Shown: positions 9,379-43,019 of the stretch, in pieces
Position numbering within the stretch: position 1 is the first letter of the stretch
Layout: every line of letters starts with the position of its first letter
Assembly (NCBI GenBank): GCA_965213625.1
Contig: CBDBZU010000004.1
Location: 512,001-576,000, forward strand
Origin: a bacterium
Lineage (GTDB): Bacteria > UBA8248
DNA: 64,000 nt
Reading direction: 5' to 3'
Made by a program: the position numbers and the translations under genes
The notes under the pieces: generated by a model
Told to the model about the DNA's origin: nothing
Seen by the model: only the letters and a program-made list of their open reading frames with translations
The model's database searches: none

Positions 9379-9645
9379 GTCCGCTCCTTTCACAAATGGG
9401 GCCGCCCGCCCGGCGGCAAATGAATTGAGGATTTCAAGCCGCATGCATCGCGGCGTCTCTCACCTCTCCTCGTCAACCGGCCTTCGCCGGACTTGAAACC
9501 AGGACTCCATGAATCCCTCGGGAGATTCCAAGGTTTCATAAATGGCCTTCGGGATCAATGCCGCTCAGACGACGCGGGATGAGGGCATGCGCGTTCATCC
9601 GTCTTGTTCGGAATGAATGTATGGGATCGGTCCGCAATTCCCCTT

Positions 9646-9679
9646 GCAGGGTCAGACATATATGTCTGACATACATGCG
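9646..9679. repeat. REP-like palindrome, left part of the repeat interrupted by IS110
   Basis: GTCAGACATATATGTCTGAC is a perfect palindrome; the homologous intact copy is at 42767-42840. Confidence 0.8.
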
Positions 9680-9719
9680 TACATGGACGCCCCCCTGGAA
9701 TGCAAGCGGTTTTTTGGGA

Positions 9720-9905
9720 GGGTTCGGCGCAAAGCGGTTCGACTCAGTCGTACATTCGGCCTCTTCGTTGCGGCGCTTCGTAACGGCCGCGGGCCCGTAT
9801 GGAGATGCGCGGGTCGGGTCCGAATCGGCCCGGCGAGCTCGATGGTTCGCTCGTCGCATGTAACTGGTTGCCCCGACCCCGTCTCGATGACCGTTTGCCC
9901 TTACT
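9720..9905 (-). ncRNA. Putative bridge RNA (seekRNA) of the IS1111 element
   Basis: Non-coding region downstream of the recombinase. It has guide-like segments TACATGCG and GCCGGGCCG (target) and CTCCATACG and ATGTACGA (donor). Boundaries are approximate. Confidence 0.8.
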
Positions 9906-9956
9906 CCTCCTGTGGCCTGCCCACATTCCTCCCGGCTCTATCCGCGCGCCCGCCGC

Positions 9957-10982
9957 TCAGGCGAGGGGCGCCGGTTCCCTGTAGTCGTCCTTGTTCCGCA
10001 TCAGCGCCCACGCGATGCGCGCCATTTTGTTGGCCAGCGCCACCGCGACGAGCATCCTCGGCTTGCGCGCCAGCATCCGGGCCAGCCACGAACCCGGCGG
10101 CGCGCCGCGCCGGAGCGCCTGGCGAATCACCGACATCGCGCCCGTGACCAACAGCCGCCTCACGTCGCGCTGGCCCATCTTCGATACCCGGCCCAGGCGG
10201 GGCTTGCCCCCCGTCGAGTGTTGCCGGGGCACCAGTCCCAGCCAGGCCGAGAAGTCCCGGCCCCGCCGGAAGTTCTCCATCGGCGGCGCGAAGGCACGGA
10301 TCGCAGACGCCGTAACCGGACCCACCCCCGGGATACGCATCAGACGCCGCGCCTCCTCGTCCGCGTGGACGCTCGCGTGAAGCCGACTCTCCAACTCCCC
10401 GATCTTCCGGCTCAGACCCGCGATTTGCTCCAGAAACACCTCGCCCAACTCCCGAACCGCCACCGGCAGACCCGATTCCGCTCCCCGAACCGCCGCCGCC
10501 AGACGCGTGAGGCCCACCGGACCCTGCCGCGCGACCACCCCGAACTCCGCCAGGTGTCCCCGCAACGCGTTGATCGTCTGCGTCTTCTGGCGCTTCAGCA
10601 AATCCCGCGCCCGGAACAGCATCCCCTCGGTCTGCTGCTCCTCGCTCTTCACCGCCACGAGATGCATCGTCGGTCGTGAGGCCGCCTCGCAAATCGCCTC
10701 CGCGTCCGCCGCGTCGTTCTTGTGGCGCTTCACGTACGGCTTCACGTAGGCCGGCGGCGCGAGCCGAACCTCGTGGCCGAGCTTCGCAATCTCACGGCCC
10801 CAGCGGTGCGCCCCCGCGCACGCCTCCATCGCCACCACGCAGCGCGGCTGTTTGGCCAGGAAGTTCAGCAGACCCGCCCGACCGAGCTTCTTGCGGAACG
10901 CTACCGAACCGTCCGCGCGCGCCCCGTGGAGTTGAAAACTGTTTTTCGCCAAGTCGATGCCGATGATGTAGACTCCTTCCAT
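9957..10982 (-). CDS. IS110 family recombinase/transposase (DEDD)
   Basis: GIDLAK, AMEAC, KNDAADA, IPGVG, GLVPRQHSTGGK, VALANKMARIAW; GGAGG RBS before ATG 10982. Confidence 0.95.
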   Translation of the reverse strand: MEGVYIIGIDLAKNSFQLHGARADGSVAFRKKLGRAGLLNFLAKQPRCVVAMEACAGAHRWGREIAKLGHEVRLAPPAYVKPYVKRHKNDAADAEAICEAASRPTMHLVAVKSEEQQTEGMLFRARDLLKRQKTQTINALRGHLAEFGVVARQGPVGLTRLAAAVRGAESGLPVAVRELGEVFLEQIAGLSRKIGELESRLHASVHADEEARRLMRIPGVGPVTASAIRAFAPPMENFRRGRDFSAWLGLVPRQHSTGGKPRLGRVSKMGQRDVRRLLVTGAMSVIRQALRRGAPPGSWLARMLARKPRMLVAVALANKMARIAWALMRNKDDYREPAPLA

Positions 10983-11224
10983 GGATGCCTCCTTCCGGGC
11001 GGTGTGTGACGTTGCCTCGCCACATTCTAAACTGCCGGAAGGGGGCGTCCACCCCATCGGCCCTGCCCTTCGCCTTCACAACGCGGGTCACATGTATGTG
11101 CGGGGCGGTCCCGAGGAGTCGGTTCCGACCGAAGAGGGAGGAACCACCACCTGCACCCCATCGCAGCGTCGAGACCAGAACATGACGCTGGAATGACGAC
11201 CGGAATGCGGAATCATTTTTTCTC

Positions 11225-11282
11225 GCAGGGACAGGCCTCCGTGCCTGTCCTGCAAGGGACAACCACGGAGGGTAGTCCCTGC
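11225..11282. repeat. REP doublet (GCAG/GTAG-type hairpins)
   Basis: GCAGGGACAGGCCTCCGTGCCTGTCC followed by inverted GGGACAACCACGGAGGGTAGTCCCTGC. Confidence 0.7.
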
Positions 11283-11483
11283 GCCCCTCTCATGCCCGCT
11301 CCCTCCCTCCCCCTTTCCGGGGCTGGCCGAGGGATTTCTTTTCAGCTAATATGAGGCCATACGCAGTAAAGTGGATTAAACAACCGCCCAAACTTGGTTA
11401 TCAGGCGCACCGGCGCAGAGGGTTCCATTCAGGTTCGCCCGAGTGTTCTTTTTCGTTTTTGATTCTGTGGGGGAAATCCGGTC

Positions 11484-12254: not shown

Positions 12255-15200
12255 CTACACCCCGCCCGTCAGCGATTCGTTCCGCATCCGGCTCCGCACC
12301 TCGCCGAGCGGGCCGCTGTCGGCCACCAGGCCGTCGCGGTAGAGGATGACGTCGCGCGACCTGGCCGAAATCTTGGGTCCCGGCGCGATGACGCCCGTCA
12401 AATTCATCGGGTCGCTCGCATGGACGATGGTGGGCTTGCCCCGCGCGGGTATCTTGCGGACGGCGCGAAGCGCTTCCACCGATTCGGGCAGGGCGAACTG
12501 CTCGCCCATGAAGCCCGATACGAAACGCCCACCCCGAATCTCGCCCTTCGCTTCCAGGCGTCTGAACACGCGCACCAGTTCGCGCCAGCGTGGAGCGGCT
12601 GCCTCGCGGGCGGCCAGCTCGCGGAGCACGACACCATATCTTTTGAGCAACTGGCGCGCATGGGCTTCGCGGTGCACCTCCTCATCGAGCGGCGCGTCGG
12701 CGCTCCCCCACAGCGACCAGCGGCCCACGGGCATGAACCGGTTTTTCGCCTCGCGCGATATGGCCCTTCCCCCCGGCAGGGCGCGCAGTCTGCGCTCGCC
12801 CTTTTTCTTCTCTTTGGCACCCGCTATCAGCGCCCTTAATCCCGCCACTCCGTCGCCCGTCACCAGACCACGCGCGACGAGTTCCCAGAGCGCCTCTTCG
12901 GCCTCGGTCCTGAGCCTGCCCGTCGCCCCCGTGATGTCGGCGAGGAATGACGCTCCCCTACTTTTAAGGAAATCGAGTATCTCGAGCGCGGGTCTCGACA
13001 GATTCCCCCGCCAGGCGTCTTCGGTTTCGCGTGGTTTCAGGAACAGCCCCACCTCCTCTCGCATCAGGAAGGCCAGGAGCGCCCGGCGCGAAGGCTGCGC
13101 CTTCTGGGCCGCCCGGGATCGGCTCCCGTTCACAGGCTCTTCAAGCGGCTCGGGCGGAGCGCCCGGTCGCAGGCGTCCCCACGCGACGAGGCCCGAGAGG
13201 CAAAGCGCCTCAAGATCAGCCGCGTCGTAGTTCTTGATTCGCGCAGGCAGAATCTGCTCCTCCCAGGCGGGCGCGGGCAACTCCAGCCCCTGAAGCTGGC
13301 GAACCACTTCCAAGACCCCGTCGCGCCCGTACAGCATGGCGTCCTCGTGCACGTGCTGCCACCTGAGCAGATAGCGGATAAAATCCGCCGCCGTCACGGG
13401 CTCTATCTCGCGCCTGAGCTTGCCCAGCGTCATGCGGTGAATGCGGGCGAGCAACACGCGGTCGCACCATTCGGTTACCGCCTCTGGCGCAAAGCGAGCG
13501 AAACGGCCCCGCAGAACCGCTCCCTCTCCCTCCAGAGCGGCCAGGGCGATCTCGACGTCAGGCTGCGCGAGACCCACGCGCGTGGCGAGTTCACCCGCCG
13601 TCACGGGGCCTGTCGCCTCCATCCATCCCCGCACGATGGCGAGCGCCGCCTCATCCTGAGTGGGCGGTTCCACCTCATCCCCCTGGAAGGGAATTTTATC
13701 CGGCGTGAGCCTGATTCCCGGAATCGCTGCGCTCATCAGCGCCATTCTCTCCGCAGGAACCCAGCCTTCCCGCTCGACCCCGCCCGCTTCCCACTCCGCT
13801 TTCGCCACGCGGCTCGCGGCCAAGAGTTCATCCACCCAGGCGGCCCATTCACCCGCTTCTTCCACCGGCAGCACGCACAGGGAGAGCAGCGCGTCGTGCA
13901 CCTCATCCGCGTCACGCGGGACCGGCCAGACCTGCTCGCACACCTCTTCGATAACGTCTGCGTCGAGCCGGGCGCTTTCCGCGTCATCGGGCAGGGCGCG
14001 TCTCAGCGGCACCGCGCGCGAGCGGCGCTCCTCCAGTGGCGCGTCGTCGATGAAGGCGTAGGGGTTCGCGTTCAGTATCTCGTGCGACATGGGAGAAGGC
14101 GCGGGCGTCTCCACGCCAAAGGTCTTGATTTTCCCGCTCTCTACGTCGGCGATGAGCGCTCTCAGGCTCTCGATGTCCATCGCTTCGGTCAGGCAGTTTT
14201 CCACCGTCTCGTTCACGAGGGGATGGTCGGGCGGCTCGATGGGGCCGTGGTGGTTGTCCTGGCAGGCGAGCTGGGCCGGGAAGACGGCGGCGAGCAGATC
14301 CTCGGCCCGCATGCGCTGGATCGCGACGGGCACCTTCTTACCCCCGCTGCGCCTGGGGAGTGCCAGTGCGCGCGTGGCGTTCCAACGCCAGCGGTTGGCG
14401 AACATGGGCGACTGGAGCGCGGACTGGAGCATATCCTTTTTGAGCGACGCCAGGCGCGCGAAGCCGAAAATCGATTCCAGCGGAAAGCTGTGCTGCGATG
14501 AGAGTGATAACACGATGCCGTCGTCCGTGGCTGCGGCCTGGAGTTCGAAATCGAACGTGAGGCAAAACCGTTTTCTCAGCGTGTGGCCCCAAGCGCGGTT
14601 GATGCGACCCCCGAAGGGCGAGTGGATGACGAGCTGCATCCCGCCCGCCTCGTCGAAAAACCGCTCCGCTATTATCTCTTCCTGCGTGGGTACGCGCCCC
14701 AGCACCCGCACCGTCTCGCGCACGTAGTCGAGTATCTGCGATGCGCCGCCAGGACAAATCCCGCATTCGGCGCGCATCCAGCGAATCGCCTCGGCAGGCT
14801 CGGTGAGACGCTCCGCCAGCTCACTCCTGAGCGAGGAGACGGATTCCGAGAGTTCCGCCGTCCGCGAAGGCGCCTCGCCCAGCCAGAAGGGGATGTTCGG
14901 CGGGAGCCCCTCGGCGTCTTCCACGCGCACTTTGTCGCGCTCCACGCGCTTGACGCGCCAGGAGTGGTTGCCGAGCAGGAAGATGTCGCCCGCGTTCGAC
15001 TCGATGGCGAAATCCTCGTTCACCTTGCCCACGAAGGTCTCCGCCGCCCCCTCGACCACGTCGTAATCCGCCGTGTCGGGAATCGCGCCGCCCGAAGTGA
15101 TGGCGCAAAGCCGCGCCCCGCGCCTCGGCCTCAGCAGAGCGTTCACGCGGTCCCTGTGCAGGTAGGCGGTGCGCCTGCCCCGGCTGGTGGAGATGCCTTC

Positions 15201-16580
15201 GGTGAGCATCTCGAGCACGTCCTCGAAAACACTTCTTTCAAGTTCCCCGTAAGGCTGCGCCCGCCTGACGAGTGACCAGAGCGCCTCTTCCTCCACCTCT
15301 TCCTGCGCGGCGGCCTCGGCCACCATCTGCTGGGCGAGTATGTCGAGCGGCGCTTCGGGGAAGATGACCCGGTCGAGCGCGCCTGCCCGCACCGAGCGGA
15401 TGGCGGCGGCGCTTTGCAGGAGTTCGTCCCGCGTCATGGGGAAAACGATTCCTTTGGGGATAGCGCCCTTCCAGTGGCCCGAGCGCCCCACGCGCTGAAG
15501 GAGCGAGGCGAGCGTTCTCGGCGCGCCCAGGTGGCAGACGAGGTCGACGTGGCCGATGTCGATGCCGAGTTCGAGCGATGCCGTGGCGACGATGGCCGAC
15601 AGCGCGCCCGATTTGAGCCGCTCCTCGGCGTCCAGCCTGATCTTGCGCGACAAAGACCCGTGGTGCGCGGCCACGCGGCCCTCGCCCAGCCTCTCCGTGA
15701 GCCTGTGGGAGACGCGCTCCGCCAGCCGCCGCGTGTGGACGAACACGATGGTCGTGCGGTGGCTCTCGATGTGGGCGGCAATGCGGTCAAACACCTCGGC
15801 CCAGTATTCGTGCGAGGCGATGGGTCCGATATCCTGATCGGCCACCTCGACCGTGAGCGCCATCTCGCGCTTGTGGCCCACGTCCACGATAGCGCAATCG
15901 GGAGCGCCGTCCTCCCCTCGCCTTTCCGCACCGACGAGCAGGCGCGCTATCACCTCAATCGGCTTCTGCGTGGCGCTCAGGCCGATGCGCTGGAGCCGCT
16001 CCTCGCAAAGCGCGTCCAGCCGCTCGAGAGAAAGTGCCAAGTGCGCGCCGCGCTTATCGCCCGCGACCGCGTGTATCTCGTCCACGATGACGGCGCGCGC
16101 GGTCTCCAGCACCTTGCGGCTGCGCTCGGCCGTCAGGAGAATGTAGAGCGACTCCGGCGTGGTGATGAGGATGTGGGGGCGTTTTTTGAGCATGAGCCTG
16201 CGCTCGCGAGCGGGCGTATCGCCGGAGCGCACCGCCACGCGAATCTCGGGCAGTTCCACGCCCTCTTTTTTGGCGAGCGCGCGGATTTCGCTCAAAGGTT
16301 CCTGCAAATTCTTCTGGATGTCGTTGCCGAGCGCCTTGAGCGGAGAGATGTAGACGAGGCGGCAGGTGTCTTCCAGCTCACCCGCCAGCGCGTCCCGAAT
16401 GAGGCCGTCGAGCGACCACAGGAAGGCGGCCAGCGTCTTTCCCGTTCCGGTGGGGGCTGCGATGAGCGTGTCGCGCCCGGTGGCTATCTCGGGCCAGCCC
16501 GCATCCTGCGGGGCGCTCGGCTCCCCGAATTTCTCAAGAAACCAGCGCGCGATCAGCGGATGAAACGAGTGTCTGTCCAT
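12255..16580 (-). CDS. lhr: Lhr-family ATP-dependent helicase (long form with C-terminal extension)
   Basis: APTGTGKT, SPLKAL, TTPESL, DEIH, GLSAT, HHGSLS, SLELGIDIG, QRVGRSGH; C-terminal RGGRFVSGFMGEQFA. Start chosen at MDRHSFHP. Confidence 0.92.
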   Translation of the reverse strand: MDRHSFHPLIARWFLEKFGEPSAPQDAGWPEIATGRDTLIAAPTGTGKTLAAFLWSLDGLIRDALAGELEDTCRLVYISPLKALGNDIQKNLQEPLSEIRALAKKEGVELPEIRVAVRSGDTPARERRLMLKKRPHILITTPESLYILLTAERSRKVLETARAVIVDEIHAVAGDKRGAHLALSLERLDALCEERLQRIGLSATQKPIEVIARLLVGAERRGEDGAPDCAIVDVGHKREMALTVEVADQDIGPIASHEYWAEVFDRIAAHIESHRTTIVFVHTRRLAERVSHRLTERLGEGRVAAHHGSLSRKIRLDAEERLKSGALSAIVATASLELGIDIGHVDLVCHLGAPRTLASLLQRVGRSGHWKGAIPKGIVFPMTRDELLQSAAAIRSVRAGALDRVIFPEAPLDILAQQMVAEAAAQEEVEEEALWSLVRRAQPYGELERSVFEDVLEMLTEGISTSRGRRTAYLHRDRVNALLRPRRGARLCAITSGGAIPDTADYDVVEGAAETFVGKVNEDFAIESNAGDIFLLGNHSWRVKRVERDKVRVEDAEGLPPNIPFWLGEAPSRTAELSESVSSLRSELAERLTEPAEAIRWMRAECGICPGGASQILDYVRETVRVLGRVPTQEEIIAERFFDEAGGMQLVIHSPFGGRINRAWGHTLRKRFCLTFDFELQAAATDDGIVLSLSSQHSFPLESIFGFARLASLKKDMLQSALQSPMFANRWRWNATRALALPRRSGGKKVPVAIQRMRAEDLLAAVFPAQLACQDNHHGPIEPPDHPLVNETVENCLTEAMDIESLRALIADVESGKIKTFGVETPAPSPMSHEILNANPYAFIDDAPLEERRSRAVPLRRALPDDAESARLDADVIEEVCEQVWPVPRDADEVHDALLSLCVLPVEEAGEWAAWVDELLAASRVAKAEWEAGGVEREGWVPAERMALMSAAIPGIRLTPDKIPFQGDEVEPPTQDEAALAIVRGWMEATGPVTAGELATRVGLAQPDVEIALAALEGEGAVLRGRFARFAPEAVTEWCDRVLLARIHRMTLGKLRREIEPVTAADFIRYLLRWQHVHEDAMLYGRDGVLEVVRQLQGLELPAPAWEEQILPARIKNYDAADLEALCLSGLVAWGRLRPGAPPEPLEEPVNGSRSRAAQKAQPSRRALLAFLMREEVGLFLKPRETEDAWRGNLSRPALEILDFLKSRGASFLADITGATGRLRTEAEEALWELVARGLVTGDGVAGLRALIAGAKEKKKGERRLRALPGGRAISREAKNRFMPVGRWSLWGSADAPLDEEVHREAHARQLLKRYGVVLRELAAREAAAPRWRELVRVFRRLEAKGEIRGGRFVSGFMGEQFALPESVEALRAVRKIPARGKPTIVHASDPMNLTGVIAPGPKISARSRDVILYRDGLVADSGPLGEVRSRMRNESLTGGV

Positions 16581-16666
16581 AGCGGGGCATTCTACCCCAA
16601 ACGGGAATTGAGTGAACCCATGCTCCAAAGGTGTGTTATCTCTTCTATCGGTCGAGGATGGTTACT

Positions 16667-42691: not shown

Positions 42692-43019
42692 CAGGGGTTG
42701 TTGAAAAACTCCTCCTCGATCGGAATTGACAACTACCGTCTTTCCGGCGTCATTGCCGCTTCTGTTGTATGTCGGACATATATGTCCGACATACATGCGG
42801 CCCTGCCTCTTCGCCTTCACAATGCGGGTCGCATAATATGTGGCGCTCCCAAGTAGGGAGCGCCACCTACACGTGTATCTACATCTCGACCAAGGGGGTG
42901 TGGATCGGCCCGGTCCACTAGGGGTTTTTCAACAACCCCCTCATGGGTGGAGTGTTTCCTACATTTGCGTCAGTGGGGGGAAGAATTCCGACCGAGTATG
43001 ACTTTTTCAACAGCCCCTG
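42692..43019. mobile_element. MITE-like element with CAGGGG(T/C)TGTTGAAAAA termini containing REP-like palindromes
   Basis: Left CAGGGGTTGTTGAAAAACT (42692). Inverted copies at 42921-42939 and 43001-43019. No ORF. Confidence 0.65.
42767..42870. repeat. Perfect 28-bp palindrome, intact IS110 target repeat, and GTAG hairpin
   Basis: GTATGTCGGACATATATGTCCGACATAC-ATGCGGCCCTGCCTCTTCGCCTTCACAA…; GTGGCGCTCCC-AAGTA-GGGAGCGCCAC. Confidence 0.85.

Follow-up and report, generated by a model that had tools for sequence, protein, structure and literature searches.

A stretch of 64,000 nucleotides from a bacterial genome assembly (GTDB lineage Bacteria; UBA8248; GCA_965213625.1, contig CBDBZU010000004.1, forward-strand positions 512,001 to 576,000), referred to here as the window, carries an insertion sequence (IS) of the IS110 family, IS1111 group, at positions 9680-11059 (1,380 bp, with one of the two flanking CG dinucleotides counted). 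This IS is very probably a complete and, in all likelihood, recently active member of its group, whose DEDD (RuvC-like) transposase would work together with an RNA of the same sense specified by the 277-nt non-coding region downstream of the gene. Judged at the level of sequence, the arrangement of guides and scaffold and the order of the guides match those of the published IS1111 seekRNA/bridge RNA, and we infer that the element is both intact and programmable.

The ends of the element were defined through its copies. A search of the genome (4.15 Mb in four contigs, the space covered by all own-genome searches) returned five copies at 100% identity, of which three are full and two have an internal gap, besides diverged relatives; exact searches with the first and last 40 nt of the element gave five left and five right ends. 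The left boundary (9679/9680) reads ...ATACATGCG followed by TACATGG..., while the right boundary (11059/11060) reads ...CCCCATCG followed by GCCCTGC.... Each copy has ..CATACATGCG as one flank and GCCC.. as the opposite one, and CG is therefore present on both sides, as an earlier note on this DNA had read from the interrupted site ATACATG-CG-GCCCTGC and as holds at both boundaries. The insertion context is the same at 5/5 copies (CATACATG-CG, then GCCC, within palindromes resembling repetitive extragenic palindromic [REP] sequences), indicating strict site specificity with no duplication beyond the core. All five copies thus occupy one 13-14-bp site, and not the unrelated sites that the same note had named as evidence against RNA guidance. 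The natural target lies in the 3′ arm of the REP-like palindrome family, in which five sites are occupied and nine exact TACATGCGGCCC sites (within ..GGGGCCGCATACATGCGGCCC.. or ..GTCCGACATACATGCGGCCC..) are empty; one of the empty sites, at 42792, is found in the same window and is bordered by sequences much like those around the window copy.

The REP-like palindromes themselves form a genome-wide family (TGTAG-GGGCCGCAT-AC-ATGCGGCCC and GTCGGACATATATGTCCGAC variants), often arranged as inverted doublets with variable linkers, which supplies all of the IS insertion sites and is represented in the window at 9652-9671 and 42760-42803. A genome search with the palindrome of the left flank gave 26 short matches.

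The transposase is encoded within a minus-strand open frame spanning 9957-11057, and its sequence matches PF01548 (DEDD_Tnp_IS110; E = 2.7e-12) and PF02371 (Transposase_20; E = 6.3e-23), as well as positions 1-341 of the 343-position NCBIfam model NF033542, “IS110 family RNA-guided transposase” (316.5 bits against a cutoff of 140). In a phmmer alignment, D10, E53, D90, and D93 correspond to the D/E/D/D of the ISCro4 transposase and T257-G258 to its S-G; the former columns are those given as catalytic in the literature, and the four residues are accordingly putative catalytic residues. A PDB sequence search retrieved no solved structure from the IS1111 group, only the remote IS110-group proteins IS621 and ISCro4, the similarity to IS621 (phmmer E = 2.3e-8) being confined to the C-terminal domain. 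Affiliation with the IS1111 group, as proposed in the earlier note, was borne out by several features besides the domain content. The predicted product falls, at 341 aa, within the 330- to 350-aa range of IS1111 transposases, and its residues 249-258 (GLVPRQHSTG) fit the GL-P----(S/T)G motif, both of which are described in part of PMC11187229. Furthermore, the element has 277 nt of non-coding sequence downstream of the gene (9680-9956) and 77 nt upstream of it (10983-11059), and an 11-bp inverted repeat, conserved across homologues, is set in from its ends; a long downstream non-coding end and subterminal inverted repeats of 7-17 bp are the properties by which the IS1111 group is told apart from the IS110 group in the corresponding sections of PMC11187229 and PMC11208160. 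The order of the guides (below) completes this assignment. Within the left end, upstream of the gene, a promoter-like site (TGGACG-16-TAGAAT, 11051-11024) was the only match of its kind, with 0.1 expected.

The downstream region holds two segments that would read opposite strands of the 13-bp site TACATG-CG-GCCCG and that overlap on its CG core. The first, UACAUGCG, equals the left target plus core in the minus-strand sense and is complementary to CG-CATGTA of the transposase-sense top strand; the second, CGGGCCG, has the same sense as the left target plus core of that top strand. The earlier note had placed target guides at 9855-9862 (8/8) and 9826-9834 (8/9), and both matches stood: the former is perfect at all five copies, while the latter, GCCGGGCCG, agrees at 8/9 positions with the reverse complement of the core and the right flank of the window copy, its family-wide extent being seven nucleotides (9826-9832). 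In dinucleotide shuffles of the 277-nt end, the target 8-mer arose in 32 of 20,000 cases and both target guides together in 7 of 20,000. The top-strand-complementary UACAUGCG lies 5′ of the bottom-strand-reading CGGGCCG, an order which is reported for IS1111 seekRNAs, and as the reverse of that of the IS110 type, in PMC11187229 (in part).

Comparison with relatives indicated that these segments change together with the DNA that they are predicted to read. A protein scan of genome contigs yielded 544 confirmed relatives, the best 80 of which (57-80% aa identity) were kept; these stem mostly from Alphaproteobacteria, with some Vicinamibacterales, Acidobacteria, and Binatia metagenome-assembled genomes (MAGs). 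The downstream end is conserved as DNA, its core segment being matched at 72 of the 80 loci, and in the family alignment the scaffold is conserved while the segments at guide positions are hypervariable. Each guide was scored against the flank or end of its own element and against those of other elements, using all loci with sufficient flank (misaligned ones included) and de-duplication by loop sequence. The 5′ target guide (64 loci, 50 unique) matched its own flank at 6.80/9 positions and those of others at 4.31/9; the 3′ target guide (45 loci, 39 unique) gave 6.56/9 and 4.23/9, respectively; and in neither case was the own score reached in 10,000 permutations. The core varies among relatives (CG, TG, or AG) and the guides follow it. 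Covariation with homologous targets, suggested in the earlier note as a check, is thus apparent, natural guide changes in approximately 70 homologues being accompanied by changed flanks and ends. Match rates drop outside eight positions for the 5′ target guide and seven for the 3′ target guide; these per-position rates were taken from unique loci scoring at least 6/9 (45/53 and 32/40), for which reason the rates inside the guides are inflated and only the fall-off is informative. From this fall-off it follows that the site read would comprise 6 + 2 + 5 = 13 bp.

A natural case of altered specificity is provided by a sister IS of the same subfamily that this genome also contains (76% nt identity), present as an intact copy and as a second copy interrupted by an insertion of approximately 1.35 kb. 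Its 3′ target guide, GUAUGCG, accompanies the flank GTATG-CG, and its donor guide, AUACACGA, accompanies a right end that finishes in CATACA, with AUGUA of the present element replaced by AUACA in step with the right end. The two sister loci (C4:927666-928960, L006; C4:4129761-4132490, L009/L010) show 74-77% nt identity to the element and a target of approximately GTATS-CG-TTYRT. Three further fragments, 72-83% identical to parts of the element (C3:2926-3120, C4:907472-907574, and C4:4124823-4124978), are probably remnants of related elements.

The scaffold in which these guides are predicted to be held was derived from an alignment of 66 sequences, in which 63 of the 72 relative loci were combined with the window copy and both copies of the sister IS; L057, L062, L066, L079, and L086, judged to be misaligned or truncated, were left out together with exact duplicates. 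RNAalifold proposed 23 pairs, 13 of them with compensatory changes. The final structure has 30 pairs in eight helices, in which 93.3% of cells are paired, as against 26.8-41.6% with slid partners; 17 pairs are changed on both sides, and 0/500 shuffles reached any of five measures. In the 8-bp outer stem of the target arm, 6/8 pairs are changed on both sides, and the CCAG/UYGG helix of that arm is 89.8% paired, while one pair of the inner hairpin (46/62) occurs as UA 25, AU 22, CG 12, and GC 3 times. The GCGGC hairpin of the donor arm (columns 112-116/128-132) is 98.5% paired with three pairs changed on both sides, and the closing helix (columns 3-5/167-169) is 96.5% paired, one of its pairs being represented by GC 25, AU 19, and GU 18 times. 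Many G-U pairs (16/90, GU 20; 3/169, GU 18) are compatible with the transposase-sense strand only. Two candidate helices were discarded: one closing a simple donor loop (columns 91-94/181-184), which was only 75.3% paired and was replaced by the closing helix, and a local 5′ hairpin (columns 3-5/12-14), which was 70.2% paired and was reached by 92/500 shuffles. Both target guides fall in the internal loop between the 8-bp outer stem and the inner hairpin, as the earlier note had described, and both donor segments are unpaired in the junction of the closing helix and the two arms; in this covariation-supported structure, none of the guides lies in a stem, the outcome that the note had named as a refutation.

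The evidence for a donor-reading function differs between the two donor segments. The 3′ donor guide, a match of 8/8 to the circle junction at 9748-9755 according to the earlier note, was substantiated by its covariation with the right end: across 70 loci (32 unique), it agreed with its own right-end tip plus core at 6.31/7 positions, 25 of the unique cases being perfect, and with those of other elements at 4.40/7, a difference which was not reached in 10,000 permutations. The counterpart segment at 9796-9804, CTCCATACG, which that note had termed imperfect, is a partial match whose CUCCAU complements the start of the left end, while its trailing ACG is part of a motif that is constant throughout the family and does not vary with the core. 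Positions 1-4 of this segment (CCAU) are complementary to the left-end ATGG in 17-18 of 18 unique combinations, with both sides nearly invariant. Two further readings of it, examined by eye, were discarded: the letter following CCAUAC does not follow CG or TG cores, as pairing with the first core base would demand, and the segment stays CCAUAC while right ends vary, contrary to a same-sense copy of the right end. It is conceivable that only the first arm constitutes a functional guide RNA, i.e., a seekRNA of approximately 80 nt which reads the target alone, with the ends of the element recognized via flanking target halves and subterminal repeats and with the donor segments not acting as guides. 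Such an arrangement would accord with the predominant transposase-bound RNAs of 82-96 nt carrying target matches only, and with the requirement for the target flanks of the donor in circle formation, both of which are reported in part of PMC11187229, as well as with the near invariance and marginal covariation of the 5′ donor segment and the weakness of the first-drawn donor-loop helix. We nevertheless consider it unlikely, since 9749-9755 follows the right-end tip and core in 25 of 32 unique cases, across CG, TG, and AG cores and with 0/10,000 permutations reaching the score, and is located in a junction supported by covariation; moreover, the bridge RNAs of IS1111 elements are predicted by Durrant et al. 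to contain nucleotides that bind the donor (PMC11208160, in part).

Under the preferred reading, in which target and donor are both read, the RNA would consist of a short closing helix and two arms, the first being formed by the 8-bp stem and the CCAG/UYGG helix around an internal loop with a small hairpin, and this loop would present the 8-nt guide UACAUGCG on its 5′ side and the 7-nt guide CGGGCCG on its 3′ side. Near the second arm, in the multi-branch junction, AUGUACG(A) would read the right-end tip plus core, while CUCCAU could pair with the start of the left end. By analogy with published work on IS621 and IS1111 elements, the RNA would bridge the right end-CG-left end junction of the circularized element and the target, and the recombinase would then exchange strands at CG, so that the inserted element is flanked by CG at either end and nothing else is duplicated.

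A number of observations weigh against this interpretation. The right flank of the window copy mismatches the outermost position of the 3′ target guide, and among the unique loci, 17/50 (5′ target guide) and 13/39 (3′ target guide) score below 7/9, several of them with rearranged or misaligned ends. At positions 5-6 of the 5′ donor segment, 26 of 36 cells are paired, a level attained by 492 of 10,000 permutations (marginal), and there is no link to the core, while the outer two pairs of the closing helix (columns 1-2/178-179) are paired in 55.7% of cells. Single-sequence folds of the non-coding end are no stabler than those of shuffled sequences (z = +0.72 for 281 nt and +0.90 for 161 nt), and the structure consequently rests on comparison and not on energy; an Rfam scan of 9400-11400 returned nothing at E ≤ 1. 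A site scan found no terminator-like site, nor any promoter-like one in the stretch immediately preceding the RNA. The interval 9670-10042 is covered, at approximately 92-99% identity, by contigs of four coded RNA-library runs, which derive from relatives; one of these contigs spans 152 nt over 9788-9939 with two differences, and another extends into a REP-type flank. However, such contigs cannot reveal transcription, start, end, or strand, and they may contain DNA. Runs X1 and X3 yielded the same figures and could represent duplicate deposits of a single data set, while the uncovered transposase body in runs X9 and X10 counts as no finding.

These results leave some room for the view that the downstream region acts as DNA, through protein-binding repeats or end-like sequences, with the guide matches being remnants of nested ends: the RNA-library contigs demonstrate no transcript, the fold of the single sequence is not unusually stable, and there is no Rfam match in the region scanned. 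This nonetheless appears highly improbable, given that compensatory changes maintain 30 pairs, including strand-specific G-U pairs, that the guides vary freely while the scaffold is kept, and that the two target guides address different strands and have the core in common; homologous elements have, in addition, been shown experimentally to use such RNAs (PMC11187229 and PMC11208160, each in part). For an RNA-guided element, there are two candidate routes to the RNA, which may be made from its own promoter or by processing of the 3′ part of the gene transcript. A promoter assembled at the circle junction was also considered, in which the family-conserved right-end TTGCAT is followed 18 nt later by TACGAT upon joining of the ends; TTGCAT agrees with TTGACA at 3/6 positions, and this candidate was retained as a lead only.

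An argument for recent movement is that all three full-length copies agree completely throughout their 1,380 bp and have an open frame. The two deleted copies (C4:2342102-2343136 and C4:592776-593810; 1,035 bp each and identical to one another) are without 345 bp, corresponding to approximately 115 codons (residues 95-209, approximately), in frame and with a 7-nt microhomology at the joint, and they retain both ends and the whole RNA region. Their presence at different places suggests mobilization in trans. The same 47-bp right flank, composed of a linker and an inverted REP and stopping exactly at the end of the latter, adjoins both deleted copies and one of the full ones (C4:1823692-1823738, 2343137-2343183, and 592729-592775), while the left flanks of these three differ. 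No further exact occurrence of this flank was found in the genome, and its only IS-free relative (C4:~3787835) shows four mismatches in the 22-nt linker part that was probed. That three of the five copies have this flank, unique in its exact form, speaks for descent through copying and not for separate insertion events, and would thus suit a dead relic whose copies were spread by duplication or gene conversion after RNA-guided transposition had ceased. That the element is such a relic is, in our estimation, very unlikely: the full copies are completely identical, the open 341-aa frame matches the whole NF033542 model, the left flank is a different one at each of the five loci, two copies have right flanks without relation to those of the rest, and the guides fit the sites. 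The shared flank could have arisen by gene conversion via REP homology or by carry-over of flanking DNA. A more specific proposal, which we regard as doubtful, is that the deleted form is a non-autonomous, RNA-carrying derivative mobilized in trans, and that the recombinase sometimes carries adjacent REP DNA along; if so, an RNA-guided route for the spread of REP doublets would exist, and the element may move non-self DNA.

Strict site-specific insertion into a repeated sequence, together with subterminal inverted repeats, is also a property of IS4321 and IS5075 of the IS1111 family, and the many plasmid matches at below 60% identity to the present element may presumably include these two. The core of IS621, a further element with which it may be compared, is CT.

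The closest parallels by description, not by sequence, are ISEc11, ISPa11, ISKpn4, and ISPst6, for which a seekRNA has been demonstrated experimentally (Siddiquee et al. 2024; PMC11187229, in part). These share with the present element a DEDD transposase in the 330- to 350-aa range that bears the GL-P----(S/T)G motif, a long downstream non-coding region, subterminal inverted repeats, and two target segments for opposite strands which overlap at the insertion point, the top-strand-complementary one being 5′. In contrast, the element described here is known from its sequence alone, targets a REP-like palindrome (TACATG-CG-GCCCG), and possesses a covariation-supported donor-reading segment 3′ of the seekRNA part. 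IS621 (Durrant et al. 2024; PMC11208160, in part; PDB 8wt6) likewise has target and donor RNA parts that read both strands around a 2-nt core, inserts into REP sequences, and has the same two protein domains, but it belongs to the IS110 group, with its RNA upstream of the gene, the guide order reversed, and a simple internal loop for the donor, whereas the donor nucleotides of the present element are predicted to lie in a multi-branch junction. For many IS1111 orthologues, a multi-loop location of the donor nucleotides has been noted (PMC11208160, in part). ISPpu9 and ISPpu10 of Pseudomonas putida KT2440 (Pares-Guillen et al. 2025; PMC12288879, in part), again likened by description, are IS110-family elements with several copies inside REP sequences and with modular copies and partial modules elsewhere in the genome; they differ in that their downstream Ssr9 RNA is reported there not to be required for transposition.

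Repeated non-coding ends were also observed among the relatives analyzed here. In an Alphaproteobacteria MAG (L046:2800-4002), the stretch containing donor arm plus right end (positions 148-273 of the non-coding end of the window copy) forms a tandem array of at least nine units that repeat every 131 nt. Another relative (L030:2794-2868) has a right end that is partly duplicated in tandem, and in a further one (L043:3631-3890) a second full copy of the non-coding end follows approximately 1.1 kb downstream of the first, which recalls the modular copies described for ISPpu9.

Bridge and seek RNAs of IS1111 elements having been published already (PMC11187229 and PMC11208160, in part), the element leaves the knowledge of the mechanism unchanged and represents a known kind of RNA-guided recombinase, correctly read; the supplementary IS and bridge-RNA lists of these two papers may hold close relatives of it. 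What is added is a well-delimited natural bridge/seek-RNA system with a defined 13-bp site, a CG core, and five occupied and nine empty sites in one genome, accompanied in that genome by a sister element that appears to have been naturally re-aimed, and approximately 70 relatives which would spell out the programmable positions of the RNA (8 + 7 for the target and 7 for the donor). It may serve as a comparative data set for IS1111-type bridge RNAs and as a candidate for recombinase engineering. The coordinates of its features are compiled in Table 1.

Table 1. Features of the IS1111-group element and of its target sites in the window; RNA guides and helices are predictions
Feature	Position	Strand	Basis or remark
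Whole insertion sequence	9680..11059	-	Ends common to five copies; empty sites join the flanks
Transposase gene, 341 aa	9960..10982	-	Stop TGA at 9957-9959; AGGAGG five nt before ATG at 10982
5′ target guide UACAUGCG	9855..9862	-	8/8 at all five copies
3′ target guide CGGGCCG	9826..9832	-	7/7 at four copies, 6/7 at the window copy
3′ donor guide AUGUACGA	9748..9755	-	Last 5 nt of right end + core CG + first left-end nt
Putative 5′ donor guide CUCCAU	9799..9804	-	Complementary to left-end start ATGGGG, with one G-U
Bridge/seek RNA scaffold	9735..9893	-	Closing helix strand CGGU (9890-9893) to ACCG (9735-9738); 66-sequence alignment
Target-loop outer stem, 5′ strand GGGUCGGG	9872..9879	-	Pairs with 9811-9818; columns 16-23/83-90, 94.3% paired
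Target-loop outer stem, 3′ strand CCCGACCC	9811..9818	-	Pairs with 9872-9879
Inner hairpin of target loop (CGAGC...GCUCG)	9834..9854	-	Columns 45-47/61-63, 97.5% paired
Donor-arm hairpin, GGCC/GGCC around GCGGC...GCCGC	9758..9795	-	Columns 106-109/144-147, 100% paired, invariant
Left-end subterminal inverted repeat TGGACGCCCCC	11041..11051	-	Reverse complement of 9684-9694; contains -35-like hexamer TGGACG
Right-end subterminal inverted repeat GGGGGCGTCCA	9684..9694	-	Kept in family alignment
Left flank, REP-like palindrome GTCAGACATATATGTCTGAC, then target half ATACATG-CG	9652..9679	+	Palindrome and target recur at other copies and empty sites
Right target half GCCCT (GCCCG at other four copies)	11060..11064	+	Copy comparison
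Unoccupied paralogous target TACATGCGGCCC	42792..42803	+	Same window as the element

Just past the IS, a minus-strand open frame of 1,457 aa with helicase-like motifs (GTGKT and DEIH) extends over positions 12255-16628 of the window.

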